Source of the DNA: Paludibacteraceae bacterium
GTDB lineage: Bacteria; Bacteroidota; Bacteroidia; Bacteroidales; Paludibacteraceae
Direction: 5' to 3'
NCBI GenBank assembly: GCA_045113275.1
Contig: JBGUIU010000300.1
Coordinates: 241 to 64,240, forward strand
DNA length: 64,000 bases
Below the pieces are notes generated by a model. The model was not told where the DNA came from. It saw only the letters and a list, made by a program, of their open reading frames with translations, and did no database searches. This document shows positions 17-18,525 of the stretch, in pieces. The position numbers and the translations under genes are program-made. The stretch's first letter is position 1. Each line of letters opens with the position of its first letter.

Positions 17-1144
17 CTATCTCAGGCAATTGGCATAGATGGAAAGAAAGATCTTTTCTAACTCTGCTTCGTCTGCTTTTAGTTCTAATGCGGCCAATCC
101 TTTCTTCATGTATTGTGTGAAGTTGTCTTTCTCTTCGGCTGAATATAGATGGGCATATTGATTGCTTTGTGTCAAAAGATCGTATGCAATGTAGTTGGTG
201 TTGTAAATCTTTCTTCCTTGGTTGATTCTTTGATCAATGATTTCTCCCAGCATTTCGAACTTCTCGTTTTTCTCTTTCTGATTGCACAATTCAAGTTCCT
301 CTCGTGTGATAGGTTTGCATACGGAAAGATGTATCTTCCCCTTTTTCTGTTTGATGCCGGTGATGATACTGTTGAGGTCTTCATTTTCTCCTTTGATGTA
401 TTTTTCCAGACGGGAGATGTAGAGTTCTGCGGTCTTTAGGAAATCACATGGCTCATATTCGTAGGATATGGAGATAGGGGTGAGACTGAGTTCGTCAAGA
501 TTATCAACAAAGCTCAGGTTGCTGCTTAACGATAGCATCTTCAGGACACCTAACTCGGTTTTGTCTTTACCGTCTTTTGTTCGTCCGTTTCGTTGTGCAA
601 TCCATACTGATTCGTGAAGATCTTTTATGACATGTCGCATGTAGGCTGACACTTCTAATGAGTTCTTGTAAAAATCTTTGATATTGCCTCCTCGTACGAT
701 CCGAAACATTTTATTTAGCTTCCCAACATTGATGACAAGATCTCCCTTCATTAAGTTGCTTCCGAAGGTGATTTGACAGGTGTCGATGTTGTGTTCTGTC
801 AATAATACATCAAGAATGGCGGCATCCAATACGATGTCGCGGTGATTGGCAATGAATATATGTCGATGCTGGTTATCAATTTCTTCTAATCCGTTGAATG
901 TGAGTCCCGTGCTTGATTTTGTCAGGATGGCTCTTATGGCTTTATGCATAATCTTCTCCTGAAACTCTTTTATGGTACGAATTTCAGATAGATTATGACG
1001 GATCTGTTCCATATCGGCTCCTGGTTGTAAATAGTTGACGACAATTGGAAAGAAGTTGTCATGCAATATTTCATGGATAGCATAGGGAACCTCAGCGTCT
1101 GTATAGGGACGGGTTTGTTCAAAATTGTAAGTCATCTCCATCAT
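17..1144 (-). CDS. PlsC-superfamily acyltransferase (lysophospholipid/glycerolipid acyltransferase-like); most distal operon gene visible in the window
   Basis: 375-aa ORF. Acyltransferase blocks 'FIANHRDIVLDAAILD' and 'WIAQRNGRTKDGKD'. Only 2 nt from the upstream ligase gene. Confidence 0.7.
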   Translation of the reverse strand: MMEMTYNFEQTRPYTDAEVPYAIHEILHDNFFPIVVNYLQPGADMEQIRHNLSEIRTIKEFQEKIMHKAIRAILTKSSTGLTFNGLEEIDNQHRHIFIANHRDIVLDAAILDVLLTEHNIDTCQITFGSNLMKGDLVINVGKLNKMFRIVRGGNIKDFYKNSLEVSAYMRHVIKDLHESVWIAQRNGRTKDGKDKTELGVLKMLSLSSNLSFVDNLDELSLTPISISYEYEPCDFLKTAELYISRLEKYIKGENEDLNSIITGIKQKKGKIHLSVCKPITREELELCNQKEKNEKFEMLGEIIDQRINQGRKIYNTNYIAYDLLTQSNQYAHLYSAEEKDNFTQYMKKGLAALELKADEAELEKIFLSIYANCLR

Positions 1145-1146
1145 TG

Positions 1147-2445
1147 TTATTTCCTGTTGTCTATGAATTTAGTCGGTTTGCGTTTGATCTCAGGCAAAAC
1201 AATTTTCTGAATCTCATCGATTGTTTTGAATTGGATGTCGGGTGCGACTCTCAGTTTAGCTCTGAAACGATCTTTCAGTTCTTTGATCATCTCCGTCTTA
1301 GGTTCTTTGACTCCGATATAGGCAGTTAGATGATCCATTCCTATCTCATTGGAAGTCACTTCAATATAGTAGTTTTCTACGTAATCGGTATTATCTAGCA
1401 CATCGAAGACAGAGGCAGGATATAGTGTTGTGCCTTTGAATTTGATCATCTGTTTCTTTCGACCGATGATAGGGCTTATCCTCATGGTGGTTCTGCCACA
1501 GCTGCATGGTTCGTAGTGGAATCGGGCAACATCTCCTGTTCTGAAACGTAGTAGCGGCATGCCTTCTACTCCAAGTGTGGTGATGGTGAGTTCGCCAATC
1601 TCTCCTTCCTTGACTGGGTTATCGTTTTCGTCAATTAGTTCGCAGATGATGAGTTCTGGATGGTGATGTCCTCCTTTCCCTGCTGAACATTCACAGAAAG
1701 AGGTGCTCATCTCTGTGGAGGCGTAGGTGGAGTAGAGCTCAATGTCCCATTTCTCTTTGATCTTACTGCCTAATAGGTTGAGTGAGAAGTCATCGTTTCT
1801 AAGATTCTCTCCGATGCAGACAGCTTTCTTTATGCTGGAGTTTCTGTAGTCGATGCCATGTTCTTCTGCGTAACGAATGATTCGTAAAATGAAAGAAGGA
1901 ACGCAGATGATTGCATCTGGTTTGATGCGTTGAATGGTGTCCCATTGTAGCTCAGGTATTCCGTTGCCGACACGAATCAATCCTGCACCCATCATGCGGA
2001 TGCCGAGACAATAGGCATAGCCTGCCATGAATCGTTTGTCGATGGTGGTCATCAGTTGATACACTTCACCAGGATGGCCTCCTGCACCTGTGAAAGAAAT
2101 GGCCTCATTGTAGGCTAAACGAACTAAGTCGTTCTCTGTCATGGCAAAGGTGGTCGGGTCGCTTAATGTACCTGATGTGGTGATATAATCGCGTATCTCG
2201 GAAGGTTCTACGCAGAAGAAATCCTTGTTGTAGCGTTGTAAGTCTTCTTTCGTTGTGAAGGGAACTACCTGAAGATCTTCTAATGTCTTTATCTTTTTAA
2301 TATCGATATGATGTGTTTCAAACATTCTTTTGTAGAAGTTCGATTTGGCATTTAAATATTCTAAAGCTTGTGCCAGTTTCTCTTCTTGAAAAGTTTTTAT
2401 GATATTTCTAGGTTGAAACTCGATTGCTGGTTCAAATTTGTTCAT
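1147..2445 (-). CDS. Phenylacetate-CoA ligase-like (PaaK / coenzyme F390 synthetase family) adenylate-forming enzyme; candidate starter-unit activating enzyme
   Basis: 432 aa. 'YITTSGTLSDPTTF' adenylation P-loop-like motif. PaaK-like length and two-domain layout. 4-nt gap to the upstream gene. Confidence 0.75.
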   Translation of the reverse strand: MNKFEPAIEFQPRNIIKTFQEEKLAQALEYLNAKSNFYKRMFETHHIDIKKIKTLEDLQVVPFTTKEDLQRYNKDFFCVEPSEIRDYITTSGTLSDPTTFAMTENDLVRLAYNEAISFTGAGGHPGEVYQLMTTIDKRFMAGYAYCLGIRMMGAGLIRVGNGIPELQWDTIQRIKPDAIICVPSFILRIIRYAEEHGIDYRNSSIKKAVCIGENLRNDDFSLNLLGSKIKEKWDIELYSTYASTEMSTSFCECSAGKGGHHHPELIICELIDENDNPVKEGEIGELTITTLGVEGMPLLRFRTGDVARFHYEPCSCGRTTMRISPIIGRKKQMIKFKGTTLYPASVFDVLDNTDYVENYYIEVTSNEIGMDHLTAYIGVKEPKTEMIKELKDRFRAKLRVAPDIQFKTIDEIQKIVLPEIKRKPTKFIDNRK

Positions 2446-2449
2446 ATCT

Positions 2450-3325
2450 TTAATGTTTCAGTAATTGATTATCTATCAGCCATTTCTTTAGTAATGCACC
2501 CCAGTCTTTAGTCTCCTCACTGCGTGTGCGAATGACACCAAAGCCATGTCCTCCGTGTTCCATAAGATGATACTCACACGGAATATTCTTCTGTTTGAGG
2601 GCGCGATACAGTACTTCACTGTTTTTATAGTTGACCACATCATCGTCTTTGCATGCTAGCAAGAATACGGGTGGCATATCTTCTGGTATCTGTTGCTCTA
2701 TGGAAAATTTAGTTATATCCGAAAGCGTGTAGTTCTTTGTTAAAAGATTTTCTCTTGATTTTTCGTGGACGATGCTATCCTGCATGGATACCACCGGATA
2801 GATTGGGCAGACGAAATCAGGTCTTAGATTGATCCCTTTCGTGTCGATGTTTCTTGCGTTAAGATAGTTTTCTTTATGGAATGCACCGCCCATGGAAACT
2901 AAGTGTCCGCCTGCCGAGAAACCGATGCAGCCGATGTTCTCGATGTTCCACTCTTTTGCTTTTTCTTGTATGATCTGCATGCCTCGTTGGAAGTCTTCAA
3001 TCATAGCAGGGTGATGGTTGCCACGCATGGCTACTCGGTAACGTAAGACAACAGCGATGACTCCCCATTGGTTGAAATACTCTGCCACTTCCGATCCTTC
3101 GTTGGTGAGTCCTAGGTGATGATAACTGCCTCCTGGACAGATCAGAATGCAGGTTTTGCTTCGCTTAATGCTGTCGTTGGGAAAGAATACACGTAGTTCA
3201 GGACGCTTCTCTTTCGCATTGACAGGTTCATCCCATAGCTTTATGACAGTATAATCGGAAGCGTGAAGAGAGCCTAGTAACCATGTAAATAAAAAAAGTA
3301 CTATTAAATTCTTATTGCGTTTCAT
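2450..3325 (-). CDS. Secreted alpha/beta-hydrolase (esterase/lipase-like)
   Basis: 291 aa. Signal peptide 'MKRNKNLIVLFLFTWLLGSLHA'. GxSxG nucleophile elbow 'GFSAGGH'. C-terminal 'EHGGHGFG'. Preceded by a 105-nt gap, the largest in the operon. Confidence 0.75.
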   Translation of the reverse strand: MKRNKNLIVLFLFTWLLGSLHASDYTVIKLWDEPVNAKEKRPELRVFFPNDSIKRSKTCILICPGGSYHHLGLTNEGSEVAEYFNQWGVIAVVLRYRVAMRGNHHPAMIEDFQRGMQIIQEKAKEWNIENIGCIGFSAGGHLVSMGGAFHKENYLNARNIDTKGINLRPDFVCPIYPVVSMQDSIVHEKSRENLLTKNYTLSDITKFSIEQQIPEDMPPVFLLACKDDDVVNYKNSEVLYRALKQKNIPCEYHLMEHGGHGFGVIRTRSEETKDWGALLKKWLIDNQLLKH

Positions 3326-3430
3326 CTATAAATGTTTAATTGTGCGAATATAATGATTTTTTTTATATAGATGGGTGCTATGAAATCATTTTGTGGGGAT
3401 GTTGAATGATTGTTGTTTGACAATCTCCGT

Positions 3431-6400
3431 TTATTTATATTCCAAGTTCTTCGGCACTGAAATACAATTTTGGGCGATGGAGAGTTTCTCTTTGTCTGAT
3501 TCTGTTGCCGTTATGTGCAGATCTTTCTTGACCAGTGCTGCAAGTAAGGCATACTCTCCTTGTCCACACTCTTTAAGTGTGTATTCACCATGGTCAGGAA
3601 GTTTGCTGACGAATTCATTTGCGGCAGAAGAGAAGATTTTCTTACGGGCTTCTTTCGCTATGCTGGCTCCCTTGTAGATATAGTTGTGATAGACCAGATC
3701 TTTGAAGTAATCGACTGTTTCAATCTCATCACACATCTTTTTGTATTCTTCTTGATAGTATTTGCGAAATGCCTGTGCGGTTGATTTGATGTCTATATTT
3801 GTTCTTAACGGATGGTCAGAGTTCACCTCTGGTAATATTTTCACATCCACGCGGCCTTTTCGAAGGATGAATTCTTGTTTAGGGAAAACATGTCCGACAC
3901 CATGAATAACAATAGGCACAATGTTCAGATTGAATTTTTGTGCTAGATAAAAGGCACCTTGATGGAATCTCAGAATTGAGCAGTCTTCGGAACGAGTGCC
4001 TTCTGGGAATATGAGAATCGAGTAGCCTTTCTGAATGACCGATCTTAATGTCTCTACACTCTTCTCTATGCCTTCGCTGACAGGGAAGAAATCAGCATAT
4101 CGTATGATTCTTCCGTAGAAAGGACAGTTCCACACCCATTGATTGGTTAAACAGATGATCTTAGGGTGTAGCATCAGTGTGTACATTAAATCTATATGCG
4201 ATTGATGATTGCAGATGAGAATGGATGGTTCATCAAAGTTGTGATTGGATTCATTGATGATAGAGTGTTTGATGTTGGGTATCAGTTTCGCCATCCGACG
4301 GAGGGTGTTGCAGAGGATTGTGTGATACTTGAGTTTGTTCTTATCACTCTTCTTGCGAATGGTAAGAAGGAAAAATCCTATGATGGAGATGATAAGACTA
4401 CCGACCAGGAATACGATGAAACTGACGATGGTTGATCCTAAGTTCCTTAGCGTGATAGGCATAAGACGTGCTTCTCCCTTGTGTGTGGTGAGCCATTTGT
4501 AGATGAGCGGAGGAAAGAGATATGCCATCAAGATGACACAGAACATACCGACGATCGTTAGTTCTGCTAATGACTTCATCGCAGGATGTTTCGCTACGAT
4601 GAGTGCCCCTATACCGATAAACATGATACAGGCGGATAGAAAGACAGAGTTTTTATATGAGGCAAGCACTTTCTTCTTGTGCGTGTATTCGTACATGAGT
4701 CCTTCTGTCACGAATATTGTATAGTCATCTCCCTGTCCGAAGATGAATGTGGATAGGATGATATTGACAATGTTGAAACGGATGTCGCATAGGTTCATGA
4801 TGCCTAAGATCCATATCCATCCAAATGTTAATGGCAAGAAGGCTAATAGGCTTAATTCAACTCTTCCGAATGAGAGTGTAAGGAATAAAAATACGATGAA
4901 AGCGCAAATGAAGAGCACATGGTTGAAATCTTGAGAGAGGGTTTCTATCATATGCTGAAAGTAGGATTGCGTGTTGATGGTATAGATGTTGGGGGTGATT
5001 TTGTTGAGTTGTTTTTCTAGTTGAAACACCTTCTCTTTTTCACATTCTAATACCGTGTACACAAGTGCCTTGCATGAGTCTTCATATATGTATAGGTTGG
5101 TGAGCGCTTTTTGAATGGGTTGAAAATGTTTCTCGTCATCAACAAGCATTGGCTGACTGATTTTATCGATAAAATGGGAGAAAATACTGTAATTGAAACC
5201 GATCGCTTCGCCTTCTTTTACGATTAGCTTGGACATGATCTCTTTGTTCTGCTCCCAGTACTCATTCCATTTTTGTATATGGTCGGCTCTGGATTGCATG
5301 GTGGTGGCGAAACATCCGACGCCGGATTCCCGAATGATCAATCCTTTCTTCTTCAGCTCGGTGGTCTCCTTTTGTAGTTTTGTGAGATGTGCTAATGCTT
5401 CGTCTAGGTTCTTTCCGTCGCAGACACAATACATCTTGGCATGATTGTTTTCCGTCTCATCAATTAGCATGGATAACTCCTCTTTTTGTGAGTCGGTCAT
5501 GAAATTGATCTTGTGCAAATCGGTCTCAAACTCAGTTTTTGTGCTGAAGTAATAGAGAGGAATGGTTAATAGGATAATTCCCCATACCAACCATCTTTTC
5601 TTCTCCCACTCTACGTTGACGATCTTACCAAACATCAGTTGATGACTCTGCTGCGCTTTGAATAGCTTGTTTTTAAAGAGATGAGGTAAGAAGAGTAAGA
5701 CAAATAGGATTGTGCCGATCAATAGGAGCGCTGAGAATAATCCCATGTCTCTCATGGCCTGTGAGCGAATGAAAAGAATGCTTAAGAATGCACCTACGGT
5801 AGTGATGTTGCCAACGATGAGTGGAGATGTGATCTCTCGTATGGTCTCTTCACGGTTGGAACACTCTTTTAGATGTGCCAGGAAATGGAGCGGATAGTTA
5901 ACTGCAATGCCCACAATGACAGAACCAATTCCTATTGCAATGATTGATATGGAGTCTTTGAATAAGGCAAGGAAACCAAGTGCAAATAGCGTTCCGAAGA
6001 GGATGGAGAACAAGATGAGACCAATCGCACGTATGTCTTTGTAAAAGAAAAAGAGAAGAACGCATATACCTAGAAGGGCGATGATGGATGAAACGAGGGT
6101 GTCGTTCTTGATCTGTTGTGCATTGCTGATGGATATCTCGCATGCACCAATGTGTTTGATTTGGTATAGATTCTCTTTCCCCTTGATGCTGTTTTGTGCG
6201 GTTTTATCGATGATTTTAATCCATTCTTTGTTGAGGTTGGTCTCGCTTGCAGGTGTTTCGCTGGATAATGTGATAAGTAGTTTATCCTTCGTCTTATTGA
6301 AGATGTAGCTATTGTATTGCTGAAATGTATTCTCTTGGTAAGAGTCTTTCAGCTTTTTGAGGATCGAGTTGGAGATATGTAGCGGATCCTTTAGAATTAT

Positions 6401-6916
6401 ATTCTGAAAGAAAGAACCCGTTGGAGAATACAACATGTTTTGATTCCATTGTAGTTCCTGACGTATTTTTGATTCGTCGATCATAAGAGAATCCAATCTC
6501 TTGTAATCTTCCGAACTCATGAAGTAGGGGAGATTTTCCAGGATGAAATCGGTTAATTCTGCTATGTCAGAATCTGATATTTTATAAAACAGATCGCTGG
6601 TCAGATTGCGGGTATCATTCTTCTTCAGTTCAGATTGGAACGTCTCAGCAAGTTGTGTCAGACTATCGCGAAAGCCTGGGAACGTGTCGGTGCAGGATAG
6701 GGTAACAAGAATCTTGTTTCCTGTGTCGATGTGTTGGTAAGCCTCGGATATCTTTTGTGCTTTTTCACTTTGTGGCAGAAAATCGTTGATGTTTTCTGAG
6801 AACTGAAGATGAGACAAACAGAGTGTGAAGAACAGAATGACACCTGCGAGCAACCAGTAGAGTTGCTTTGGATTCCGTTCAAAATGTTTATATAGGGAAA
6901 GGATTCTTTGTTTCAT
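3431..6916 (-). CDS. Fusion protein: MMPL/RND-type exporter + PlsC-type lysophospholipid acyltransferase + short class-I methyltransferase-like tail
   Basis: 1161 aa. Two blocks of multiple TM helices separated by large soluble loops (MMPL layout) over roughly aa 1-840. 'ILICNHQSHIDLMY' (HX4D) and 'IFPEGTRSED' acyltransferase motifs. The last ~60 aa, 'TLKECGQGEYALLAAL..HITATESD', resemble SAM motif I/post-I. ATGA start/stop overlap with the GT2 gene. Confidence 0.8.
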   Translation of the reverse strand: MKQRILSLYKHFERNPKQLYWLLAGVILFFTLCLSHLQFSENINDFLPQSEKAQKISEAYQHIDTGNKILVTLSCTDTFPGFRDSLTQLAETFQSELKKNDTRNLTSDLFYKISDSDIAELTDFILENLPYFMSSEDYKRLDSLMIDESKIRQELQWNQNMLYSPTGSFFQNIILKDPLHISNSILKKLKDSYQENTFQQYNSYIFNKTKDKLLITLSSETPASETNLNKEWIKIIDKTAQNSIKGKENLYQIKHIGACEISISNAQQIKNDTLVSSIIALLGICVLLFFFYKDIRAIGLILFSILFGTLFALGFLALFKDSISIIAIGIGSVIVGIAVNYPLHFLAHLKECSNREETIREITSPLIVGNITTVGAFLSILFIRSQAMRDMGLFSALLLIGTILFVLLFLPHLFKNKLFKAQQSHQLMFGKIVNVEWEKKRWLVWGIILLTIPLYYFSTKTEFETDLHKINFMTDSQKEELSMLIDETENNHAKMYCVCDGKNLDEALAHLTKLQKETTELKKKGLIIRESGVGCFATTMQSRADHIQKWNEYWEQNKEIMSKLIVKEGEAIGFNYSIFSHFIDKISQPMLVDDEKHFQPIQKALTNLYIYEDSCKALVYTVLECEKEKVFQLEKQLNKITPNIYTINTQSYFQHMIETLSQDFNHVLFICAFIVFLFLTLSFGRVELSLLAFLPLTFGWIWILGIMNLCDIRFNIVNIILSTFIFGQGDDYTIFVTEGLMYEYTHKKKVLASYKNSVFLSACIMFIGIGALIVAKHPAMKSLAELTIVGMFCVILMAYLFPPLIYKWLTTHKGEARLMPITLRNLGSTIVSFIVFLVGSLIISIIGFFLLTIRKKSDKNKLKYHTILCNTLRRMAKLIPNIKHSIINESNHNFDEPSILICNHQSHIDLMYTLMLHPKIICLTNQWVWNCPFYGRIIRYADFFPVSEGIEKSVETLRSVIQKGYSILIFPEGTRSEDCSILRFHQGAFYLAQKFNLNIVPIVIHGVGHVFPKQEFILRKGRVDVKILPEVNSDHPLRTNIDIKSTAQAFRKYYQEEYKKMCDEIETVDYFKDLVYHNYIYKGASIAKEARKKIFSSAANEFVSKLPDHGEYTLKECGQGEYALLAALVKKDLHITATESDKEKLSIAQNCISVPKNLEYK

Positions 6917-7695
6917 TTCATGCAGTTTTTAATTTTTTTGTAAAGCATTCGTATCAGCATGGATGGATATCCATAGAGTATAGCCAAAAGACAGAGAACC
7001 GTGTTTAAGATGCTTATTCTTAAGAAGTCTTTCCCTGGTCGGAAGTGTGATACTCTTTCTCCTTTGGGCGGATAATAGACATTGATGTTTAGGCTGACCA
7101 TCGGGATCAGTCTCCATGCACAACGTACCAGTAGTTCTAATTCAGCTTCGTAACGTTTGTTGAAGGGAGTCATGTATTTCATCTCCTTCAGTGGATAGAG
7201 GCGATAGCCTGTCTGCGTATCGGGTAGCTTGTGTGCGGTTTGCAACGTAAACCAGAAGTTGGAAAAACGGTTGGCAAACGTATTAGCACCAGGCATGTTA
7301 GCATTGTCAAACGACCGACTTCCAATCAGGAACGCATCTTGGTTCTTTTGGTGAGCCTCAATAAAGAGAGGCAGATCGGATAGCTTATGCTGTCCATCAG
7401 AATCGAGTGTGATGATGGAGTTCCACCCTTGCGTTTTTGCATAGAGAAAACCCTCTTTCAACGCATTTCCTTTTCCTTGGTTTTGTTGGTATGATATGAT
7501 ATGAATTTTCCCCTTCCATCGGGATAAAATTTCTTTTGTATGGTCGGTGGAACCATCATCCACGACAAGGAGGAGGGAAGTGTAGTTTTGCGCCTCTGAA
7601 ATGATATGCTCTAACGTTTGATCATTGTTGTATGTAGGAATTAATAGCGCAATTTTGTTCGTATCTAAGTATTCTTTGATAACTATTGGCTCCAT
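6913..7695 (-). CDS. Family 2 glycosyltransferase
   Basis: 'IALLIPTYNNDQTLEHII', 'VVDDGSTDHT' and 'ITLDSDGQH' GT2 motifs. The ORF is open to 7746, but Met18 (7695) avoids a 37-nt overlap with the upstream gene. Confidence 0.8.
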   Translation of the reverse strand: MEPIVIKEYLDTNKIALLIPTYNNDQTLEHIISEAQNYTSLLLVVDDGSTDHTKEILSRWKGKIHIISYQQNQGKGNALKEGFLYAKTQGWNSIITLDSDGQHKLSDLPLFIEAHQKNQDAFLIGSRSFDNANMPGANTFANRFSNFWFTLQTAHKLPDTQTGYRLYPLKEMKYMTPFNKRYEAELELLVRCAWRLIPMVSLNINVYYPPKGERVSHFRPGKDFLRISILNTVLCLLAILYGYPSMLIRMLYKKIKNCMK

Positions 7696-10678: not shown

Positions 10679-10939
10679 TTATTTCGTTCTGTTTTTTGAA
10701 ATGTAATCTGCCATGATCTCAATGGATTTAAAGATTTCTTTTCCCTCGCTGGCATTTTTAAGTTTAATACCGTAGTTCTTTTCCATCAAGACGATCAATT
10801 CCAAAGCATCGATAGAATCTAATCCTAACCCTTCTCCGAAAAGAGGTGCACTAGCATCGATGTCTTCTGGCTTCATTTCCTCTAAGTTGAGTACCTCTAT
10901 TATTTCTTCTTTTAATTCTTGTACTAATGTTTTATCCAT
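10679..10939 (-). CDS. Acyl carrier protein
   Basis: 86 aa. Phosphopantetheine site 'GLGLDSIDALELI'. Confidence 0.9.
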   Translation of the reverse strand: MDKTLVQELKEEIIEVLNLEEMKPEDIDASAPLFGEGLGLDSIDALELIVLMEKNYGIKLKNASEGKEIFKSIEIMADYISKNRTK

Positions 10940-10947
10940 GTCGTTGA

Positions 10948-11598
10948 TTATTTATGCGGTTGCAAAGGTATAAAAAAATATTTTTCTATGTTTGTTTTAT
11001 TCCATGAAGTAAGAGCCCCGTCAGACTCTCGATCGACTAGGAATAAAAGGACATCACATTGGTCGTTTAAATATTCAACCCATCCGATGAGGAGATGATT
11101 GATTCCTTTCTCCTTCGAAAGTCCGATGGAAGCGTTCTCTATTAGAACATCCGCATCAAACTTTTCCATGATATAGGAACAGGACTCTCCCATGATCTTG
11201 TTGCGTATGGCAATCTCTCCAGTCACGATGTTGGATAGTGTATATACAAACACGGAAGGACTAGGGAAGTAATTATTGGGATCATTGATTGTCTCTTGAT
11301 AGAGCTGATCATTGTCCAAAGAAGAGGATCTGTTGAACAAAAGAACCGACCAGTCTCTTTTCTCTTCTTCCGGATGAATCCCCGTTTCTTTAAAGATAAG
11401 TTCTGTGGCAAGAAATCCTGCTTTGCAGAGATTGTCCATTTTGAAAAACTTCGGATATTGTATGCCTAATGTCCGGTATATACATGTTAACCATGTACTA
11501 TTCTCCTCTTGGTTGATTGCCAAAGGGGTGCCGTTGACGAACACTTCGGTTGACGTGATCCGTATGGCACGTTGGATGTATAGTTCATCGTTTTTCAT
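10948..11598 (-). CDS. Half-size beta-ketoacyl synthase N-terminal-like protein (no catalytic residues evident)
   Basis: 216 aa. 'FPSPSVFVYTLSNIVTGEIAIRNKIMGES' resembles the substrate-loop region of KS/CLF proteins. No Cys-His-His triad and half the length of a KS. Confidence 0.55.
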   Translation of the reverse strand: MKNDELYIQRAIRITSTEVFVNGTPLAINQEENSTWLTCIYRTLGIQYPKFFKMDNLCKAGFLATELIFKETGIHPEEEKRDWSVLLFNRSSSLDNDQLYQETINDPNNYFPSPSVFVYTLSNIVTGEIAIRNKIMGESCSYIMEKFDADVLIENASIGLSKEKGINHLLIGWVEYLNDQCDVLLFLVDRESDGALTSWNKTNIEKYFFIPLQPHK

Positions 11599-11603
11599 AT
11601 TGC

Positions 11604-12239
11604 CTATTTCTTAAATGTTACCTTTACTGTTTTATAGCCTAATGCGGTGAATAGACTCTTGAACGTCTCCTTCGCATTCTCCTCAGCCATTTTTATGTTC
11701 TCCTTTTGTAATGCTTTCGCTTTTAATCTTTTTTTCGCGTTCTGATACATCTTCTCTTTTACAGTGGCACTGATCGATCCCTTCTCGTAGAATGTCCTCG
11801 TCCGTGTGTCATCGATGATCTCTTTGTCTAGAAGCTCGATGGGCGGAAGCGTTATGGTTGCTTTGGTATCGGTGAGCACAATCCAGCTTTTGTTGGCTTT
11901 TTTTGTGTTGATGCCTAGATGTGCTGTGCCGCTGAATATTTTTGCCGACTGACTTTCAGAGAGCTTCTTTGAAACGAAGGTGTCAACCAGCTCCTCTAGA
12001 TGAAGCGTTAAGAATTCCCACTCTTCAATTTCTTTGATAGAGGTGATGCAATCTGTTGTAGGATCAATCTTTGCTTTGTCATCAGATTGATCGGAATCAC
12101 GCAGAAATATAAAATAGATAGCGAGCCCCACCGCAAGGATGATCCATAGCCACGGACTTCTAATCATTTCGTCTGTGATATATTCTTTCCCTTTCGATGT
12201 ACTCTTTCGTGAGGATGTTTTCTTTTTTAAGATAGCCAT
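11604..12239 (-). CDS. DUF4230-like membrane-anchored protein
   Basis: 211 aa. N-terminal TM 'WLWIILAVGLAIYFIFL'. Body shows the DUF4230-like pattern ('TAHLGINTKKAN..ATITLPPIELLDKEI...AEENAKETFKSLFTALGYKTVKVTF'). Paralogous layout to the adjacent gene. Confidence 0.55.
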   Translation of the reverse strand: MAILKKKTSSRKSTSKGKEYITDEMIRSPWLWIILAVGLAIYFIFLRDSDQSDDKAKIDPTTDCITSIKEIEEWEFLTLHLEELVDTFVSKKLSESQSAKIFSGTAHLGINTKKANKSWIVLTDTKATITLPPIELLDKEIIDDTRTRTFYEKGSISATVKEKMYQNAKKRLKAKALQKENIKMAEENAKETFKSLFTALGYKTVKVTFKK

Positions 12240-12243
12240 GACT

Positions 12244-12903
12244 CTATTCGTTTTCTATTAGGATCAGTTTTTGTAATATATCTTTATTGTGAATATTTTG
12301 TTCGATTTCATCGGTGAATGAGATCGTGATATTTTCTTGCTTGTATCCTGCTGCCGTCAAAATTGGGAGCAATGTTTTATAGGCTGATATTCGACTTCTG
12401 TCTAAGATGTCGCTGTTGACCATGCTGGCTAATATGCTGGCTCTGCCTTGTGCCGTGAATTTCTCTATTTCCTCGGAGGTGAATCTGGAACGGTTCCACG
12501 ACAAATATTGTTTCTCGTTCTTATAATCGATTTTGGAAGAAGAGAGTACAATCTGCGGATTGGGTAATGTAATCTTTAGTTGCTCCCCCTGTATATCTAT
12601 GTTGCTTGAATTGAATGAGGAGAAATCGATATATGCTTTGATTGTAGCATCAATAGGGACAATCAGTTTCCGTTCGCCTGGTATGGGAATGGATATCTTT
12701 TCTGAGAAGATCGAACCTTCGATTGCATGAAGGTCTTCGTAGGTAAGCAGTTTGTGAACGTTGTACTGAACCGTGTTTAGTTTGGCACAGTTGACGATTT
12801 GAGAAATCATCACCTCGTCCCCTTTCTTCTTTCCATCAGAGCAGCTGTAGCATAGAAAGAGGGAAAACAGTAGTATAAACTTATATAGAGGTCGAGTATT
12901 CAT
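12244..12903 (-). CDS. DUF4230-like lipoprotein
   Basis: 219 aa. Lipobox 'LFLCYSC'. 'AKLNTVQYNVHKLL', 'ATIKAYIDFSSF..LKITLPNPQIV' and 'ILDRSRISAYKTLLPILTAAGYKQENITISF' fit the DUF4230 pattern as I recall it. Confidence 0.55.
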   Translation of the reverse strand: MNTRPLYKFILLFSLFLCYSCSDGKKKGDEVMISQIVNCAKLNTVQYNVHKLLTYEDLHAIEGSIFSEKISIPIPGERKLIVPIDATIKAYIDFSSFNSSNIDIQGEQLKITLPNPQIVLSSSKIDYKNEKQYLSWNRSRFTSEEIEKFTAQGRASILASMVNSDILDRSRISAYKTLLPILTAAGYKQENITISFTDEIEQNIHNKDILQKLILIENE

Positions 12904-12909
12904 GGTTGT

Positions 12910-14052
12910 TTATATTAGTCCGTAAATAATTGCAGCATTGCTGCCTCCAAATCCTGATATGATTTTTAAGAACGCATCTCCTTCAATCTCTCGGAATGAG
13001 GTGTTTACTGTCATCTCCTTGACCACTCCTTTGATTTCATGTCCTATTGTGGGAAAGAGATGTTTCATCTTTAATTCATGACATGAGATGATACATTCGA
13101 GGATTCCTGCAGCCCCTAATGTATGTCCGAAATATCCTTTTAGGCTATTTGTATATATGTCGCTGAGTTGACTTCTGCTGATGGCCCATGATTCCATGTC
13201 GTCATTATAAGGGGTGGCTGTTCCATGGGCACTGATGAAGGCTAGTTTGTAGTCTCTCGTCTTCGCCTGATTCATAGCAGCTGTGATGGCATTGAACAAT
13301 CCTTCGCCTGTGCGCGATGGACCTGAAATATGGTTGGCATCGTTTCGATTGCCTGTTCCTAATATGGCGCATTTCCCTGATGGAATCGTGTTATTTTGTT
13401 CCAACACCATTGTGGCGGCCGCCTCTCCTATGTTTAATCCTTTTCGGTTGGCATCAAAAGGTTTGCAACGTTCTGTGGATAGTGCTTTGAATGATTGGAA
13501 TCCTGAGATGACAAATTTACTAAGGATATCGGCACCGATGACTACCGCGTATCTGTACCCTTTTAATTCCATCATCTCTTTGGCATAGATCTGAGCTGCC
13601 ACACCAGAGGTGCAGGCGTTGCTGACAACCATCACGGGATTAGGATTCTGAAAGAACTGCCCGATCAGCTCGGCAGATACCCCCATGTTGATACGGTTTT
13701 TGTCGTATCCATCGGCATTTTCCAATAGATGAATGTTCCCTTTGGTGGATGAGACTACGAATAACACATCAGATGCTTTTGCATCTATGTTGGCAAGCTG
13801 AATAGCATCATAAGCTGATAAGATAGCTAATTTCTCAAATCTTGTATATCGAGTCTTCCTCTGTGAGTCAATCTTTTGAAATCGATTCTCTATCTCGTCC
13901 CAATCAAGGAATGCACCAAAGTAGGGTTCGGGCAAATCAAAAACATGATGATGCAATTGGCTTTTGAGTTTCCCTTCTTTCATGGAAGAAAGATTTTCTT
14001 CGGTGGTGTAGCCTAGAGGAGAAATGATGTTGTCGCTGATTACGTATATCAT
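12910..14052 (-). CDS. Beta-ketoacyl-ACP synthase (catalytically complete)
   Basis: 380 aa. 'VVSNACTSGVAAQ', 'SAHGTATPYNDDME' and 'FGHTLGAAGILE'. Confidence 0.9.
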   Translation of the reverse strand: MIYVISDNIISPLGYTTEENLSSMKEGKLKSQLHHHVFDLPEPYFGAFLDWDEIENRFQKIDSQRKTRYTRFEKLAILSAYDAIQLANIDAKASDVLFVVSSTKGNIHLLENADGYDKNRINMGVSAELIGQFFQNPNPVMVVSNACTSGVAAQIYAKEMMELKGYRYAVVIGADILSKFVISGFQSFKALSTERCKPFDANRKGLNIGEAAATMVLEQNNTIPSGKCAILGTGNRNDANHISGPSRTGEGLFNAITAAMNQAKTRDYKLAFISAHGTATPYNDDMESWAISRSQLSDIYTNSLKGYFGHTLGAAGILECIISCHELKMKHLFPTIGHEIKGVVKEMTVNTSFREIEGDAFLKIISGFGGSNAAIIYGLI

Positions 14053-14057
14053 AGATG

Positions 14058-14486
14058 TTAGTTTATTTTATCCGTTAGTATTACTCGAAATTCGCCAGCC
14101 GCAATTTCTTCTTCACCAATCGTCATGGTTGCATCATAGATTGATACATCTCCATAGTTCTCTTTCTCTGTCACATGCGTGATTACCAAATCACCGACCC
14201 TTGGATAACGCTTGATATCCAGTGCTTTTATTTGAGCTACCATGCCAATGCGTATGTATTGTGCATTCCGAATATGGATTTCAATGTATCCAATATGTGT
14301 CGCACAGGTCTGTGCAATGTTTTCCAATAATCCGGATTCAGACAGCTCACCGTCGTGTACCATGATGTTTTGACTTAACACATTGAATTCTGTCTGACAC
14401 TCCTGGATAGATACAGATTGGATCTTATCTACCATGATGAATGGTCGTTTCTGAGGAAGATAGAAATCAATAGGATGTAGTTCCAT
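14058..14486 (-). CDS. Hotdog-fold dehydratase/thioesterase-like protein
   Basis: 142 aa, with the size and pattern of small APE-cluster hotdog proteins ('LPQKRPFIMVDKI...SGLLENIAQTCATHIGY'). Confidence 0.55.
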   Translation of the reverse strand: MELHPIDFYLPQKRPFIMVDKIQSVSIQECQTEFNVLSQNIMVHDGELSESGLLENIAQTCATHIGYIEIHIRNAQYIRIGMVAQIKALDIKRYPRVGDLVITHVTEKENYGDVSIYDATMTIGEEEIAAGEFRVILTDKIN

Positions 14487-14496
14487 GCTGAAATTG

Positions 14497-15582
14497 TTAT
14501 GCTTTTGTACATTCGATAAGACTATGTCCCATGCCTAAGCCATCATGGATCTTGCTGATTTTCAATCCAGCTTGTTCTATGTAACGGAACAAATCATGGG
14601 AGTAGAACATCTTACTGTTACCATTGGCCATCGCTGTGAAATATATGCTGATCTGGGCAAGACAGTAGGAGGCTGTTTCGAATTGTTGTCTGTCCCATAG
14701 TGTCTCCATGATGAATAGTTTGGATTGATTCGACATGCTATGAGCTGCTCTGCTTAGTATGCTGATGACCTCTTCTTCACTGAAGCAATCGAGGAACTGA
14801 CTCATCCAAATGATATCGTAGTTGGATGGGAGTGAGACGTTCGGATCCAATAGATTAGCGCCCAACTCATGGATGCGGTCGTTCCCTGCCACATCCTTTG
14901 TCGTTTCACGCATTAGTTTTAATTGTTGAGGCAGGTCCATGATGGTAACTTCCACATCTTTCTTGAAGGTCACGCATTCCGTGGCAAAGCGACCTGTGTT
15001 CCCTCCAACATCCAATAATGTCATCTTTCCATCATGAAAGATGATCTTCATCGCTTCTTGAAAAGAACACAGAGAGTAGTAGTGGTCAAAGTCGAACCAG
15101 CTTTTTTGCGTGTCCTTAGGTAATTCAGACAATCCTTCGTAGATGGTTGGCCAGTTGCCAAATACTTTTAGACCTTCCGGTTTTCCCTCTTTTATTGCCT
15201 CTTCTAAGTGAAATAATCCAAGGTAATTGACATCATGGTTGAAATTAAGATTGATGCGGGCTATCTCATCGTTCAATAAGAACCATCCCGCTTTGGATAT
15301 AAAATAGCGTTCCTCTTTTAATAGGATTGTTCCAATGGTAAGCGATGATTCCAGCAAGCATTGTAATCCGTACCGAGAGATCTCTATGTTTTGGGCTATT
15401 TCATCGAATGATAATCCTTTTTTGTTGTTGTCCAGTAGTTGCAGAATGCCAAATTTCAGCATTAATCTAGAAACTTGAAATACGACCGGGCCAAATGCTA
15501 TCTCTTGAGCCAGACGTTGCGCTTGAATCGCCGTCAGTCGTTCTTTTGCATACATTTCTTTTTGAGGAGAATTTAATTTCAT
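14497..15582 (-). CDS. Class I SAM-dependent (O-)methyltransferase with N-terminal winged-helix dimerisation domain
   Basis: SAM motif I 'LLDVGGNTGRFATE' and acidic post-I 'VTIMDLPQ'. Start taken at Met10, forming an ATGA overlap with the upstream stop (the ORF is open to 15609). Confidence 0.85.
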   Translation of the reverse strand: MKLNSPQKEMYAKERLTAIQAQRLAQEIAFGPVVFQVSRLMLKFGILQLLDNNKKGLSFDEIAQNIEISRYGLQCLLESSLTIGTILLKEERYFISKAGWFLLNDEIARINLNFNHDVNYLGLFHLEEAIKEGKPEGLKVFGNWPTIYEGLSELPKDTQKSWFDFDHYYSLCSFQEAMKIIFHDGKMTLLDVGGNTGRFATECVTFKKDVEVTIMDLPQQLKLMRETTKDVAGNDRIHELGANLLDPNVSLPSNYDIIWMSQFLDCFSEEEVISILSRAAHSMSNQSKLFIMETLWDRQQFETASYCLAQISIYFTAMANGNSKMFYSHDLFRYIEQAGLKISKIHDGLGMGHSLIECTKA

Positions 15583-16493
15583 ACTGTTTCGTTGTTTGAT
15601 TCTTTCCAATAAGGGAAGAAGTTAAACCATTGAGTAGGGTATTTTATGATTATCTTTTCTAATATCTGGGTGTAGTCAGAGGCCATGGCGATGGCTTTCT
15701 GCGTGGAGTTAGGTAACTCATCGTGAGAAGGGATGCGACACTCGTAAGTCTTGTAATGCGTATTCTTCTCTTTCATGATGAATAACGTGTACATGGGAAC
15801 ATCCAATTGAGCCGCCAACCGGAATGGACCGATGGGGAGCTCTGCCTCTTCGCCTAATAGCTGACAGATGGTGTTTTTGGTGCTTCCAAACATACGATCG
15901 CACGGAATAACCACGATCTCACCATTGTCTAGGGCTTCTTTTATGATAAAGAGATGAGACATATCTTGTTTGACAGGAATCAGATTGATGTTTACTTCAT
16001 CAAAGGCTTCGTCCCGTTTCTTCTGAAAATCAGCTCGTTCGCCTCCAAATATGATGGTGTTGATTTTCTTCTCAGCATGAGGTATGCACAAGCCTGCCAG
16101 CTCGAGATTCCCCACATGTGCGCTTGCGATGATAAATCCTTTTTCTTGTTTCATTTGGTGGTGAATGACCTCATCCGCATCAATATCAATGTCGAATTGC
16201 TTCTTGTTGCCAGCCAGTAGAGCAAACTTGTCTAGCACAACTTCACCGAATAATATATGATTTCGAAACGTACACCATGCGGACTTGAGGGCGGAGAAGT
16301 GTTGCTTCTCACGAAAATAGTGATAAGCTGCATTCCGTCCTTTTGATGCGAAAATAAGGTAAAAAGGGATGACTAAATAGAGTATTGGATACAAAAAACG
16401 AACCGGTACACGTTTAAGGAAATGAAGCAGAAACTTTTGCCCGAATTGTCCTCCTCCAGTTTTACCTTCCCATTTCTTCTCTTTCGTCTCCAT
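15579..16493 (-). CDS. LpxL/HtrB-like lysophospholipid (lauroyl-type) acyltransferase
   Basis: 304 aa. N-terminal TM helix. 'IIASAHVGNLELAG' gives the HX4E catalytic dyad typical of the LpxL family. Confidence 0.75.
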   Translation of the reverse strand: METKEKKWEGKTGGGQFGQKFLLHFLKRVPVRFLYPILYLVIPFYLIFASKGRNAAYHYFREKQHFSALKSAWCTFRNHILFGEVVLDKFALLAGNKKQFDIDIDADEVIHHQMKQEKGFIIASAHVGNLELAGLCIPHAEKKINTIIFGGERADFQKKRDEAFDEVNINLIPVKQDMSHLFIIKEALDNGEIVVIPCDRMFGSTKNTICQLLGEEAELPIGPFRLAAQLDVPMYTLFIMKEKNTHYKTYECRIPSHDELPNSTQKAIAMASDYTQILEKIIIKYPTQWFNFFPYWKESNNETV

Positions 16494-16496
16494 GCG

Positions 16497-16754
16497 TTAT
16501 TCCTTTGAGGCAGCAGATAAACGATTGGATATGAATGAATAGAATTCCCCTAATGTTTGAATGGAACTCATTTCGTTGGCTGTGATCTTAAACTTGAATT
16601 GTTTTTCCACCTCCACTGCAATGTCCACAAAATCTAGGCTGTCGATTTTGAGATCATCTTTCAGTTTAGCTGTCTCTTTGAGTTGCTCTTCCTCTATTTC
16701 AAATTCGTCCGAAAGAAAATCATTGATAATTTTTTTGATTTCTGTTATGTCCAT
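16497..16754 (-). CDS. Acyl carrier protein
   Basis: 85 aa. 'DLKIDSLDFVDIAVEVE' phosphopantetheine Ser motif. Confidence 0.9.
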   Translation of the reverse strand: MDITEIKKIINDFLSDEFEIEEEQLKETAKLKDDLKIDSLDFVDIAVEVEKQFKFKITANEMSSIQTLGEFYSFISNRLSAASKE

Positions 16755-16826
16755 TTTGTTACGTTTATTGTTATCGAAAATCTTTTTTGTAAAAATAAAT
16801 ATAAATAGATGAAAAACAAATGGAAA

Positions 16827-18044
16827 TTAGATTTTTCTGACAATAAGACAACTGTTTGTTCCTCCGAAACCAAATGAGTTGGAAAGGAAGGTGTCGATTT
16901 TTTTCTCGGTTGGCTGGGTGATAAGGTTGATAGAGGCTGTCTCTTCATCACCTTCTTCAAAGTTGATGTTAGGGGCGATGAATTGATTGTTCATCATCAA
17001 AAGAGAATAGATGATTTCACTGGCACCTGCCATCCAACACTCATGTCCGGTCATGGATTTCGTGGAACTGACGGGCACGTCACCTAAAAGATCATGGATA
17101 ACCTTAGCTTCGGCCGCATCGCCGAGAATCGTTGAGGTGGCATGTGCATTAACATAATCAATGTCGGATGCAGCAATACCTGCATTATGTAGTGCGTTTT
17201 GAATAGCTTTTTTATATCCATCGTATGATGGAGTGGCCAATGAACCACCACTGGAGGAAAAACCATAGCCTATTATCTCACCGTAGATCGGAGCCTTTCG
17301 CCTCATTGCATGTTCATATTCTTCTAGGATGACAGTGGCAGCACCTCCACTGGGAACCAGACCATCTCGGTTCTTGTCGAATGGGCGACAGGCTTTTGTC
17401 GGATCATCCACACGTTTTGAGAAAGCACCGATGGCATCAAAACTGGCCATGCTGAAGGTGTTGACTTCTTGTGCGCCCCCACATACGATTATGTCTTGCC
17501 AGCCTTGTTTGATAAGAGCCATGCCTAACCCTATTGTATGAGAACTACTGGCGCAAGCGGCACTTACGCTGAGGCTGATTCCCTGTAGATTAAAAATAGA
17601 AGACAGGTTCATGGTGATGTTTGAGTTCATGGTTTTGAAGACAGCACTTTGACCCATCATCATTGTATCTTTACTTTTGCAAGCCTCCTCGTGCGCCTCT
17701 ATTATGGCTTTGGTGGAGGAGTCGTTACCAAATAAGATACCGATAGTATTATCTTGTGTATTCTCAAGAGATAGGTTGGCTTTGTTCAAAGCCTCGAGCG
17801 TAGATATATATGCATATTCAGCCTCCTCAGAAAGGTAAATTCGTTGTTTGCGGTTGAGGTATGGTTTTAGATCAGGTTGGCGCACGATTCCAGTTAAGAT
17901 GGAAGAATAACCATAGTCTGTTCGGGTTGGGTCTATACCTATCCCAGAGTGACCGGTTCGTAGAGAATCCAGCACTTCTTTTTCGTTCTGACCTATAGAT
18001 GAATAAATTCCGAATCCTGTTATTACTACCTTTCTGTTTTCCAC
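16827..18044 (-). CDS. Beta-ketoacyl-ACP synthase (FabF/FabB-like, catalytically complete)
   Basis: 'SVSAACASSSHT', 'NAHATSTILGD' and 'MTGHECWMAGASE'. The ORF is open to an ATG at 18116, but that start overlaps the upstream gene by 59 nt. A GTG at 18044 gives the canonical 'ENRKVVITGFG' N-terminus. Confidence 0.85.
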   Translation of the reverse strand: MENRKVVITGFGIYSSIGQNEKEVLDSLRTGHSGIGIDPTRTDYGYSSILTGIVRQPDLKPYLNRKQRIYLSEEAEYAYISTLEALNKANLSLENTQDNTIGILFGNDSSTKAIIEAHEEACKSKDTMMMGQSAVFKTMNSNITMNLSSIFNLQGISLSVSAACASSSHTIGLGMALIKQGWQDIIVCGGAQEVNTFSMASFDAIGAFSKRVDDPTKACRPFDKNRDGLVPSGGAATVILEEYEHAMRRKAPIYGEIIGYGFSSSGGSLATPSYDGYKKAIQNALHNAGIAASDIDYVNAHATSTILGDAAEAKVIHDLLGDVPVSSTKSMTGHECWMAGASEIIYSLLMMNNQFIAPNINFEEGDEETASINLITQPTEKKIDTFLSNSFGFGGTNSCLIVRKI

Positions 18045-18057
18045 TCTCTGTATGAAT

Positions 18058-18525
18058 TTATATGTTTTCGTCGTTGTCTTCCAATAAATCTTTACACTCT
18101 TTGAATGCCCGTTCAAGATGATTCATCTCTTTAGAGAGGAAGGTGTAGAAATCGTTCCATTGTTCTTTCTTGTGGATGTTCAATCCTTTTTGAACTTTGT
18201 AGATCCTGGAGACCATTTCACCCGTTTCTTTTTCGAAGTTAAGTTCCCAAATAGCGTCTCCGAAGTATTGGTCGAAGACGACTTTGTATTTTTCAAGCGT
18301 TGCCAGCATGTTCAGTCTCTTATCTTCGTTTTTATGGTTGAATTCCAGAATGACGTATGCACCTTCACGTGTGGCATCGAACTTCAATTCGACACCTTTT
18401 ATCTTTGTGTTATAAAGGATCCATTTTTTCTTTCTGTATTTGAAACGTGGCAGATTTTCACAAAACGCGTTAAATCCGTTCCAAAAATCTTTTTTTAGCT
18501 GTTTGGACTCTTCTCGTGTGTACAT
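18058..18525 (-). CDS. Small cytoplasmic protein of unknown function (DUF4268-like); first gene of the co-directional block
   Basis: 155-aa ORF with good coding character and a TACCTTTG -7 motif 18 nt upstream. The family call is from memory of the 'W..F' N-terminal pattern only. Confidence 0.4.
   Translation of the reverse strand: MYTREESKQLKKDFWNGFNAFCENLPRFKYRKKKWILYNTKIKGVELKFDATREGAYVILEFNHKNEDKRLNMLATLEKYKVVFDQYFGDAIWELNFEKETGEMVSRIYKVQKGLNIHKKEQWNDFYTFLSKEMNHLERAFKECKDLLEDNDENI

Follow-up and report, generated by a model that had tools for sequence, protein, structure and literature searches.

A compact flx-family gene cluster with a reduced gene set in uncultured Paludibacteraceae

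Introduction

Few types of predicted biosynthetic gene cluster in Gram-negative bacteria are as widespread as those for aryl polyenes and flexirubins, which have been linked to protection from oxidative stress and to biofilm formation. Which genes of such a pathway can a genome give up or replace, and what would the remaining genes produce? This question is raised by a stretch of 64,000 nucleotides from a Paludibacteraceae bacterium (contig JBGUIU010000300.1 of assembly GCA_045113275.1; hereafter the window), in which positions 17–18525 encode an apparent polyketide and lipid assembly line that is devoid of several genes of the characterized pathways. The source lineage is uncultured and known from metagenome-assembled genomes. 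Flexirubin-like "arylpolyene" clusters have already been noted in gut Bacteroides (PMC12940132), and flexirubin-like clusters occur in five of six Bacteroidetes classes (PMC9248904). The locus described here belongs to this known and very common cluster family as a variant of one lineage, reduced and rearranged. It leaves the understanding of the family unchanged, given that genome mining already finds this cluster type routinely. It does show that one rumen lineage keeps a much-reduced version of the flx cluster, with its own ketoreductase (KR), tyrosine ammonia-lyase (TAL), thioesterase (TE) and LolA gone, under strong purifying selection. The locus therefore represents a natural experiment on dispensable or replaceable pathway genes, as well as a compact 18.5-kb target for heterologous expression.

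Results and Discussion

Family assignment

Genes were assigned by Pfam and NCBIfam profile searches of the translated open reading frames (ORFs), and active-site motifs were read from the sequence (Table 1; genes are numbered g1 to g20 in operon order). Two proteins and the gene order place the locus in the flx branch of the family. The ligase g19 and the methyltransferase g5 both exceed the curated NCBI cut-offs for the FlxY and FlxJ families, and by its full-length profile match g19 can be assigned to the FlxY family. This protein also matches PaaK (PDB 4r1l) at 5.9e-44. The FlxY of Chitinophaga pinensis, annotated as "coenzyme F390 synthetase-like", acts in vitro as a 4-coumarate-CoA ligase, and cinnamate, phenylpropionate and indole-acrylate/propionate also serve as its substrates (PMC3992019). 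The order of genes in the window, ketosynthase (KS)–acyl carrier protein (ACP)–LpxL-type acyltransferase–(methyltransferase)–dehydratase (DH)–KS–FlxL–ACP–KS–chain-length factor (CLF)–...–DH–GT2 glycosyltransferase–FlxU–...–FlxY, is collinear with flxC–flxY of C. pinensis (Table S4 of PMC3992019). We consider it very probable that the locus is a functional variant of the flx-family cluster. An earlier reading of this DNA, made from sequence only, had proposed an aryl-polyene/flexirubin-like type II polyketide synthase (PKS) with a lipid assembly line. That proposal holds, and the FlxY and FlxJ scores together with the gene order sharpen it to flx.

Compared with the flx clusters of C. pinensis (BGC0000839) and Flavobacterium johnsoniae (BGC0000838), the window shares, in order, the FlxC, D, E, F, I, J, L, M, N, O, S, T, U and Y families. 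Relative to C. pinensis it lacks FlxA (TAL), FlxB (KR), FlxG, FlxH (TE), FlxK (halogenase), FlxP (deacetylase), FlxQ (LolA), FlxR, FlxV (reductase), FlxW (C45 acyltransferase) and FlxX (phosphopantetheinyl transferase, PPTase). Its additional genes encode a DUF4268 protein, two DUF4230 proteins, a small EamA-like protein, a secreted esterase and, at the end, an acyltransferase of 375 aa. The proteobacterial aryl-polyene (APE) clusters of E. coli CFT073, Xenorhabdus doucetiae and Acinetobacter baumannii share with the window the ligase, an ApeO:ApeC-type KS:CLF pair, a second KS (ApeR), two ACPs, an ApeI:ApeP-type DH pair, a methyltransferase, lipid acyltransferases, a glycosyltransferase and an RND/MMPL exporter. 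The window differs by the absence of the KR ApeQ, the TE ApeK, ApeL (LolA-like), ApeN (DUF3261) and ApeG, and by the fusion of the exporter to an acyltransferase. The KS g12 matches the solved structure of ApeO (6qsp_A, 2.4e-48), whereas g13 and g15 match ApeC and ApeI weakly. Sequence similarity between the accessory proteins is weak, and the CLF and DH matches have E-values of about 1e-3. With the ape core as defined in 10.1101/2020.12.19.423268 (KS apeO/R, ACP apeE/F, CLF apeC, DH apeI/P, KR apeQ and transporter apeM), we find a KS, two ACPs, a CLF, two DHs and an RND transporter in the window, and no ApeQ, ApeL or ApeN.

Table 1. Genes of the operon and its putative promoter, with the evidence for each assignment (all positions refer to the window).
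Feature	Position	Strand	Assignment	Evidence
promoter motif	18550–18543	minus	TAnnTTTG motif TACCTTTG, Bacteroidetes-type -7 promoter	pattern search; 18 nt upstream of the g1 ATG
g1	18058–18525	minus	DUF4268 protein, 155 aa	PF14088, 92 bits
g2	16827–18044	minus	stand-alone KS, FlxC type, FabB/F-like	PF00109 + PF02801; Cys-His-His
g3	16497–16754	minus	ACP, FlxD position	PF00550; Ser38 in DSL
g4	15579–16493	minus	LpxL/HtrB-like lipid A-type acyltransferase, FlxE position	PF03279, 60.8 bits; HVGNLE (HX4E) motif
g5	14497–15582	minus	FlxJ-family S-adenosylmethionine (SAM)-dependent methyltransferase	NF053543, 593.1 bits, cut-off 560
g6	14058–14486	minus	putative hotdog DH, ApeP/FlxF-like	PF22817, E 6.5e-4 (below gathering score); weak FabZ matches
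g7	12910–14052	minus	KS, FlxI type	PF00109 + PF02801; Cys-His-His
g8	12244–12903	minus	DUF4230 lipoprotein	PF14014, 101 bits; conserved lipobox Cys21
g9	11604–12239	minus	DUF4230 protein with N-terminal transmembrane helix	PF14014, 90 bits
g10	10948–11598	minus	FlxL-like, 216 aa	position of flxL, annotated "condensing enzyme" (PMC3992019)
g11	10679–10939	minus	ACP, FlxM position	PF00550; NF006617, 90.7 bits, cut-off 70; Ser41 in DSI
g12	9479–10672	minus	KS, FlxN/ApeO type	PF00109 + PF02801; Cys-His-His; PDB 6qsp_A, 2.4e-48
g13	8418–9482	minus	KS-like without catalytic Cys, putative FlxO/ApeC-type CLF	PF13723, 47 bits
g14	8071–8424	minus	small EamA/ArnE-like four-helix membrane protein	PF00892, 39.9 bits; ArnE, E 2.3e-13, below cut-off
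g15	7710–8066	minus	hotdog DH, ApeI/FlxS-like, FabA-like	PF07977, 25 bits; PF22818; weak 6qsr_A match
g16	6913–7695	minus	GT2, FlxT position, polyprenyl-phosphate-sugar synthase-like	PF00535, 79 bits
g17	3431–6916	minus	FlxU-like MMPL/RND (HpnN-like) exporter fused to PlsC-type acyltransferase, 1161 aa	PF03176, PF01553
g18	2450–3325	minus	secreted alpha/beta-hydrolase esterase, BD-FAE family	PF20434, 69.5 bits; GFSAG nucleophile elbow; signal peptide
g19	1147–2445	minus	FlxY-type aryl-acid CoA ligase, PaaK family	NF053551, 695.9 bits, cut-off 520, full length 8–431
g20	17–1144	minus	LPLAT-superfamily acyltransferase, 375 aa, last operon gene	PF01553, 23 bits, exactly at gathering score

The profile searches also bear out most of the gene content that the sequence-only reading had listed, namely two ACPs, two hotdog DHs, an O-methyltransferase, a ligase, an LpxL-like acyltransferase, a GT2 and an MMPL protein. 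Three features that had been taken as deviations turned out to be ordinary: the PaaK-type ligase is a canonical FlxY (NF053551, 696 bits against a cut-off of 520), the exporter–acyltransferase fusion is canonical for flx (FlxU), and the esterase is standard in many Bacteroidales versions of the cluster, as is the small EamA-like protein. MMPL and PlsC domains do reside in a single 1161-aa protein, g17, with HpnN and HAE3 matches among the NCBIfam models, the acyltransferase motif HQSHID and a short C-terminal tail. The "methyltransferase stub" that was thought to complete this fusion had been proposed from an ExGxG-like motif only, and Pfam finds no methyltransferase domain in this C-terminus. 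Unlike in the FlxU of C. pinensis, a methyltransferase part is undetectable in g17. The protein measures 1161 aa in the window and in the comparison loci L002 and L095, and 1236 aa in L003 and L085, a difference of about 75 aa in the tail.

For the remaining proteins the resemblances are looser. The best NCBIfam resemblances of g16 are to the AglJ, PpgS and ArnC types, all below cut-off. The esterase g18 resembles the PaeX, AxeA1 and arylesterase models, likewise below cut-off, and matches PDB 6a6o at 5.6e-35. Orthologues of g6 in related loci were recorded as ApeP-like. Searches of PDB sequences with g10, g6 and g20 gave no match. Relatives of g20 are encoded in 175 GTDB species genomes, and its motifs NHRDIxLD, AQRxGRTKxGxD and SYEYEPCD are at least 97% conserved in 81 homologues.

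Ketosynthases and their partners

The sequence-only reading had counted three ketosynthases with complete Cys-His-His triads. Their active-site motifs confirm this count (SAACASS/NAHATST/TGHECW, SNACTSG/SAHGTAT/FGHTLG and STACSSA/NAHGTGT/TGHTTS). A fourth KS-like protein, g13, had not been singled out; it carries SHRGLS in place of the Cys motif and weakly matches 6qsp_B and 7f28_A in the PDB (E about 0.003). One could argue that the operon serves housekeeping fatty-acid synthesis, since its ketosynthases are FabF/FabB-like, it encodes ACPs and hotdog proteins that resemble FabZ, and the window has no further gene of type II fatty-acid synthesis. We discarded this explanation as extremely improbable, because the ketosynthases stay below the FabB/FabF equivalog cut-offs (best scores 374 bits versus 630, and 335 versus 494, as reached by g2). 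Moreover, the window contains no FabD, FabG, FabH, FabI or Acc gene. The exporter fusion, the equivalog-level matches to FlxY and FlxJ and the gene order shared with flx clusters also point elsewhere.

No Pfam, NCBIfam or PDB sequence match was found for g10, which aligns weakly with the KS-like core of g13 in a profile comparison (hhalign E 0.0028, probability 11%). From its position and this alignment, g10 is probably a short KS-like partner of g7, of the chain-length-factor type. We infer that the window encodes two KS:partner heterodimers, g7:g10 and g12:g13. This pairing is suggested by two natural fusions, one of a KS with a FlxL-like protein (590 aa, Parabacteroides locus L089:11963-13735) and one of a KS with a CLF (761 aa, Bacteroidales locus L092:14075-16360), and by the precedent of ApeO:ApeC.

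Operon architecture

The locus is a compact single-operon gene set. As described by the sequence-only reading, 20 co-directional ORFs on the minus strand fill positions 17–18525, and with the most plausible start codons 98.7% of this span is coding. From g1 to g20 the junctions measure 13, 72, 3, -4, 10, 5, 6, 4, 5, 8, 6, -4, -7, 4, 14, -4, 105, 4 and 2 nt (negative values are overlaps). The three 4-nt ATGA overlaps (15579–15582, 9479–9482 and 6913–6916) and the gaps of 72 and 105 nt lie where that reading had placed them. Its statement that all other gaps span 2–8 nt needs correction: three gaps measure 10–14 nt, and g13 and g14 overlap by 7 nt. The promoter motif that it had noted at 18543 corresponds to the TAnnTTTG sequence in Table 1. 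On the operon strand between positions 17 and 19000 this pattern occurs only once in an intergenic position (18543–18550) and four more times inside coding sequence. From this layout we predict that the DUF4230 pair, the DUF4268 gene and the secreted esterase gene are co-transcribed with the rest. An Rfam search found no RNA element in the 72-nt and 105-nt gaps; its matches in the window are three tRNAs elsewhere. No intrinsic terminator was found on the operon strand after g20 in L002, the corresponding locus of the rumen genome described below.

Missing genes and cluster boundaries

In a profile scan of all window ORFs of at least 110 aa we found no short-chain dehydrogenase/reductase (SDR) or other KR, no thioesterase, no LolA, no DUF3261 protein and no aromatic ammonia-lyase. 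This result agrees with the earlier claim that KR, thioesterase, LolA-like carrier and DUF3261 lipoprotein are missing from the window. The window also contains no linked candidate for darA or darB. The last gene, g20, ends close to the left edge of the window, and the sequence-only reading had suggested looking for a KR or thioesterase in the 5 kb beyond. The closest genome allows this: g20 is 96% identical to a gene of the rumen metagenome-assembled genome RUG11121 (uncultured Bacteroidales), followed in similarity by genes of ruminant and horse Paludibacteraceae metagenome-assembled genomes. In RUG11121 (L002), g20 is followed by an opposite-strand gene and then by H+-pyrophosphatase, pyrBI and flavin reductase genes, from which we conclude that the cluster ends at g20. 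Neither the 64-kb window nor 10 kb past its left edge in this genome contains a TAL, KR, thioesterase, LolA, FlxV, FlxW or PPTase gene.

On the other side of the operon, three FKBP isomerase genes, an AsnC regulator gene and rimP-nusA-infB lie on the opposite strand. Several ORFs of suitable length were considered as KR candidates and rejected. The divergent upstream ORFs of 244–252 aa at 19231–20749 encode the FKBP isomerases rather than SDRs, and further ORFs of 248–250 aa encode a YgjP-like peptidase and PssA. A KR or TAL was also sought in relatives, between the FlxU and esterase genes or near the esterase, FlxY and g20-type acyltransferase genes. The genes at these places encode GH16, a FlxV-like FAD oxidoreductase, a B12-radical SAM protein, GT4, GT2 and an M20 peptidase, with no KR or TAL among them.

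Comparison with related loci

FlxJ homologues form at least 7,996 clusters at 90% identity in public data. The canonical layout, seen in locus L089 of an uncultured Parabacteroides sp. and in the Bacteroidales locus L092, reads TAL–KR–KS–ACP–LpxL-type acyltransferase–FlxJ–DH–TE–KS–FlxL–ACP–KS–CLF, followed by a deacetylase and/or LolA. These loci have the LpxL-type acyltransferase, FlxJ, ApeP-like DH, KS, FlxL, ACP, KS, CLF, EamA-like protein, ApeI-like DH and GT2 in the same order as the window, and the FlxJ proteins of this type of locus are 69–71% identical to that of the window. They differ by starting with TAL–KR–KS–ACP, by a 4HBT thioesterase after the DH and by the polysaccharide deacetylase and/or LolA; the DUF4230 pair and DUF4268 are absent. 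A small EamA-like gene occupies the same position in L045, L050, L053, L065, L077 and L092.

The reduced version recurs in at least six other assemblies. Two loci follow the window order from g1 to g17: L095, which is 94–99% identical, and L093 (GCA_045600225.1). The short contig L094 shares the first genes with the exception of FlxJ, the LpxL-like acyltransferase being followed directly by the dehydratase (L094:10990-12323), so that methylation seems dispensable in at least one relative. In L085, L086 and L091 the first KS and ACP are missing as well. All six Paludibacteraceae loci (L085, L086, L091, L093, L094 and L095) begin with DUF4268 beside the same FKBP/AsnC neighbours. DUF4268 lies directly before the cluster in L023/24/26 and in L085, L091, L093, L094 and L095. 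All Paludibacteraceae loci that reach far enough carry the DUF4230 pair between KS and FlxL, and none of the Paludibacteraceae loci compared contains TAL, KR, TE or LolA at the locus. Since Parabacteroides keep the canonical TAL–KR–...–TE–...–LolA layout, the gene order identifies the reduced layout as a variant of the Paludibacteraceae lineage.

Selection

Given the number of canonical genes that are missing, and the g17 tail, which falls about 75 aa short of those in L003 and L085, one might regard the cluster as a remnant in decay, deprived of essential genes and without function. Comparison with sister species rules against such decay. All 20 genes, including the DUF4230 pair, DUF4268 and the esterase gene, are under purifying selection, with ratios of nonsynonymous to synonymous substitution rates (dN/dS) of 0.00–0.14 at dS values of 0.16–0.70. 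The ratio is 0.016 for DUF4268, 0.066 for g8 and 0.071 for g9 (the DUF4230 pair), 0.035 for the esterase g18, 0.013 for the FlxY protein g19, 0.046 for g20 and 0.038 for the FlxJ protein g5. Because of these values and the conserved motifs of g20, a decaying remnant is very unlikely. Furthermore, 20 of 20 ORFs are intact, so are the catalytic motifs, and the same architecture recurs across several species.

Proposed pathway

How might the remaining genes work together? With moderate confidence we favour the view that the reduced flx operon makes a methylated aryl-polyene acyl lipid. In this pathway g19 would activate an aromatic acid as the CoA thioester. No TAL is linked, and either the product of an unlinked gene or the gut environment, of which cinnamate, phenylpropionate and indole-acrylate/propionate are typical metabolites, would therefore have to provide the acid. 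The aryl starter would be extended on the ACPs g3 and g11 by g2 and the putative pairs g7:g10 and g12:g13, and following the precedent of ApeP:ApeI, the hotdog pair g6:g15 would catalyze dehydration. Retention of two dehydratases implies that a KR is needed. The main gap of the model is this β-ketoreduction, for which an enzyme from outside the operon would be needed, either an unlinked FlxB-type SDR or FabG. We see three possibilities: an FlxB-type SDR encoded elsewhere, a competent host FabG, or different chemistry. The FlxJ-type protein g5 would methylate the aryl ring.

The later steps are modelled on the APE lipid of Xenorhabdus. There, two ACPs carry the APE and another conjugated acyl chain, which ApeD and ApeJ attach to a GalNAc-phosphate-glycerol backbone. 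For export this lipid uses the RND protein ApeM and helpers of LolA/LolB type; the roles of ApeD, ApeJ, ApeM, ApeL and ApeN are as proposed in 10.1101/2020.12.19.423268. By analogy, g4, the PlsC-like domain of g17 and g20 may transfer the polyene acyl chain to a glycolipid or phospholipid anchor, the GT2 protein g16 and the ArnE-like g14 would contribute a sugar, and the MMPL domain of g17 would move the lipid out of the inner membrane. Without linked dialkylresorcinol genes, a classical flexirubin ester is the less probable end product and a membrane lipid of the APE type the more probable one.

Several points weigh against this pathway. First, the KR is absent from the operon, the window and the 10 kb beyond it in L002, and in Acinetobacter FabG was unable to replace the dedicated ApeQ in vitro (PMC8041823). 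Second, TAL, thioesterase, LolA, FlxV, FlxW and PPTase are unlinked. Third, the dehydratase and chain-length-factor assignments are weakly scored: g6 falls below the gathering score, and the g10–g13 alignment has the low probability given above. Finally, as the sequence-only reading had supposed for Bacteroidales, the literature searched yielded no paper that determines the product of a Bacteroidales cluster of this type.

The esterase–FlxY–acyltransferase triad

The last three genes, g18 to g20, stay together in most of the 80 Bacteroidales loci compared (L003–L081). This triad is often detached from the PKS genes. It stands next to GT4 in L008, and in GCA_045600225.1 it lies on a different contig (L007) from the PKS genes (L093). 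In some loci a FlxV-like FAD amine-oxidase-type oxidoreductase and a B12-binding radical SAM protein are encoded between FlxU and the esterase (L036:4481-7370); both are absent from the window. This distribution suggests that the triad is a semi-autonomous sub-module, possibly with a putative promoter of its own in the 105-nt gap (3326–3430).

Detachment of this kind supports an alternative to which we give somewhat less than an even chance: the cluster is split, TAL, an FlxB-type KR, thioesterase and LolA are encoded elsewhere in the genome, and the product is an ordinary flexirubin-type aryl polyene. The flx-type genes are often scattered in Bacteroidales, as the triad illustrates, and darAB of C. 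pinensis likewise lies at a separate locus from the flx genes (PMC3992019). A dedicated KR also seems to be required in APE systems (PMC8041823). On the other hand, canonical loci hold TAL–KR–KS–ACP as one block, of which the window keeps KS–ACP and L085 and L091 lack all four. This pattern looks like stepwise loss instead of relocation, and no relocated copy was found in any examined locus of the lineage. We note that the split-cluster explanation overlaps with the pathway proposed above and differs from it only in the source of the missing steps.

The DUF4230 pair

The two DUF4230 genes are placed between the ketosynthase g7 and its putative partner g10. Cys21 of g8 is nearly invariant. The sequence-only reading had remarked on this embedded pair as unusual, and rightly so: such pairs also exist outside flx clusters in other Bacteroidales, as a lipoprotein and a membrane protein beside a DUF4738 gene (L082:1275-2586 and L087:2359-3664). 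Because the pair also stands alone, away from flx genes, in more distant Bacteroidales, it is a module of two genes in its own right, and its presence here results from insertion. An AlphaFold2 model built for g8 (predicted local distance difference test score 77.7) gave no significant match in a Foldseek search of the PDB and none to LolA or LolB (best E 0.2, template-modelling score <0.25), with only non-significant hints of TULIP-type lipid binders (SPLUNC1, Der f 7, JHBP). A literature search on the function of DUF4230 returned nothing relevant. We can only speculate that the pair might be a carrier that replaces the lost LolA/FlxR pair.

The insertion invites the question as to whether the locus still makes an aryl polyene. 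It could have diverged towards another acylated envelope lipid, for example an aryl-capped or a beta-keto/hydroxy acyl lipid. The DUF4230 pair and the esterase would then count as new parts of the pathway. Conservation of the reduced gene set in several species under strong purifying selection is compatible with this idea, as are the retention of the DUF4230 pair between KS and partner and the lack of a linked KR. We nevertheless judge it unlikely. The two retained dehydratases need beta-hydroxy substrates and hence a KR, the aryl-specific FlxY and FlxJ are among the most conserved genes, and the DUF4230 pair, which also occurs away from flx clusters, may be a passenger.

A more far-reaching version of the favoured aryl-polyene lipid pathway would use neither TAL nor a dedicated KR. 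Here, an aryl-polyene-type outer-membrane lipid would be built from plant or fermentation aromatic acids, and the DUF4230 pair would deliver it instead of LolA/LolB-like carriers. Forage would be the source of hydroxycinnamates, released by the secreted BD-FAE-family esterase and then activated by the FlxY encoded next to it. That g18 might free hydroxycinnamates is an attractive idea, but we regard the complete scheme as a long shot. If true, it would provide the first function for DUF4230 and tie a common class of gut biosynthetic gene clusters to diet-derived phenolics.

Neighbouring genes

The rest of the window contains housekeeping genes, among them those for an AddB-like nuclease and sigma-54. 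A run of envelope-lipid genes on the plus strand (43580–48865) comprises cdsA, psd, pssA-like, sppA and lpxK, and tamB lies at 57749–62272. A plus-strand ORF at 39782–43555 encodes a protein of 1257 aa with a signal-peptide-like N-terminus, about 700 aa of E/K/Q/R-rich and apparently coiled-coil sequence, and a Ser/Pro/acidic tail. This ORF has no Pfam match and accounts for the strong A-richness at 40–42 kb (AT skew 0.43). Another plus-strand ORF (49955–54241) encodes a 1428-aa protein with two BcrAD/BadFG ATPase domains and DUF2229, of the "CoA enzyme activase" type. The three tRNA genes are those for tRNA-Phe (36906), tRNA-Arg (55820) and tRNA-Pro (56450).

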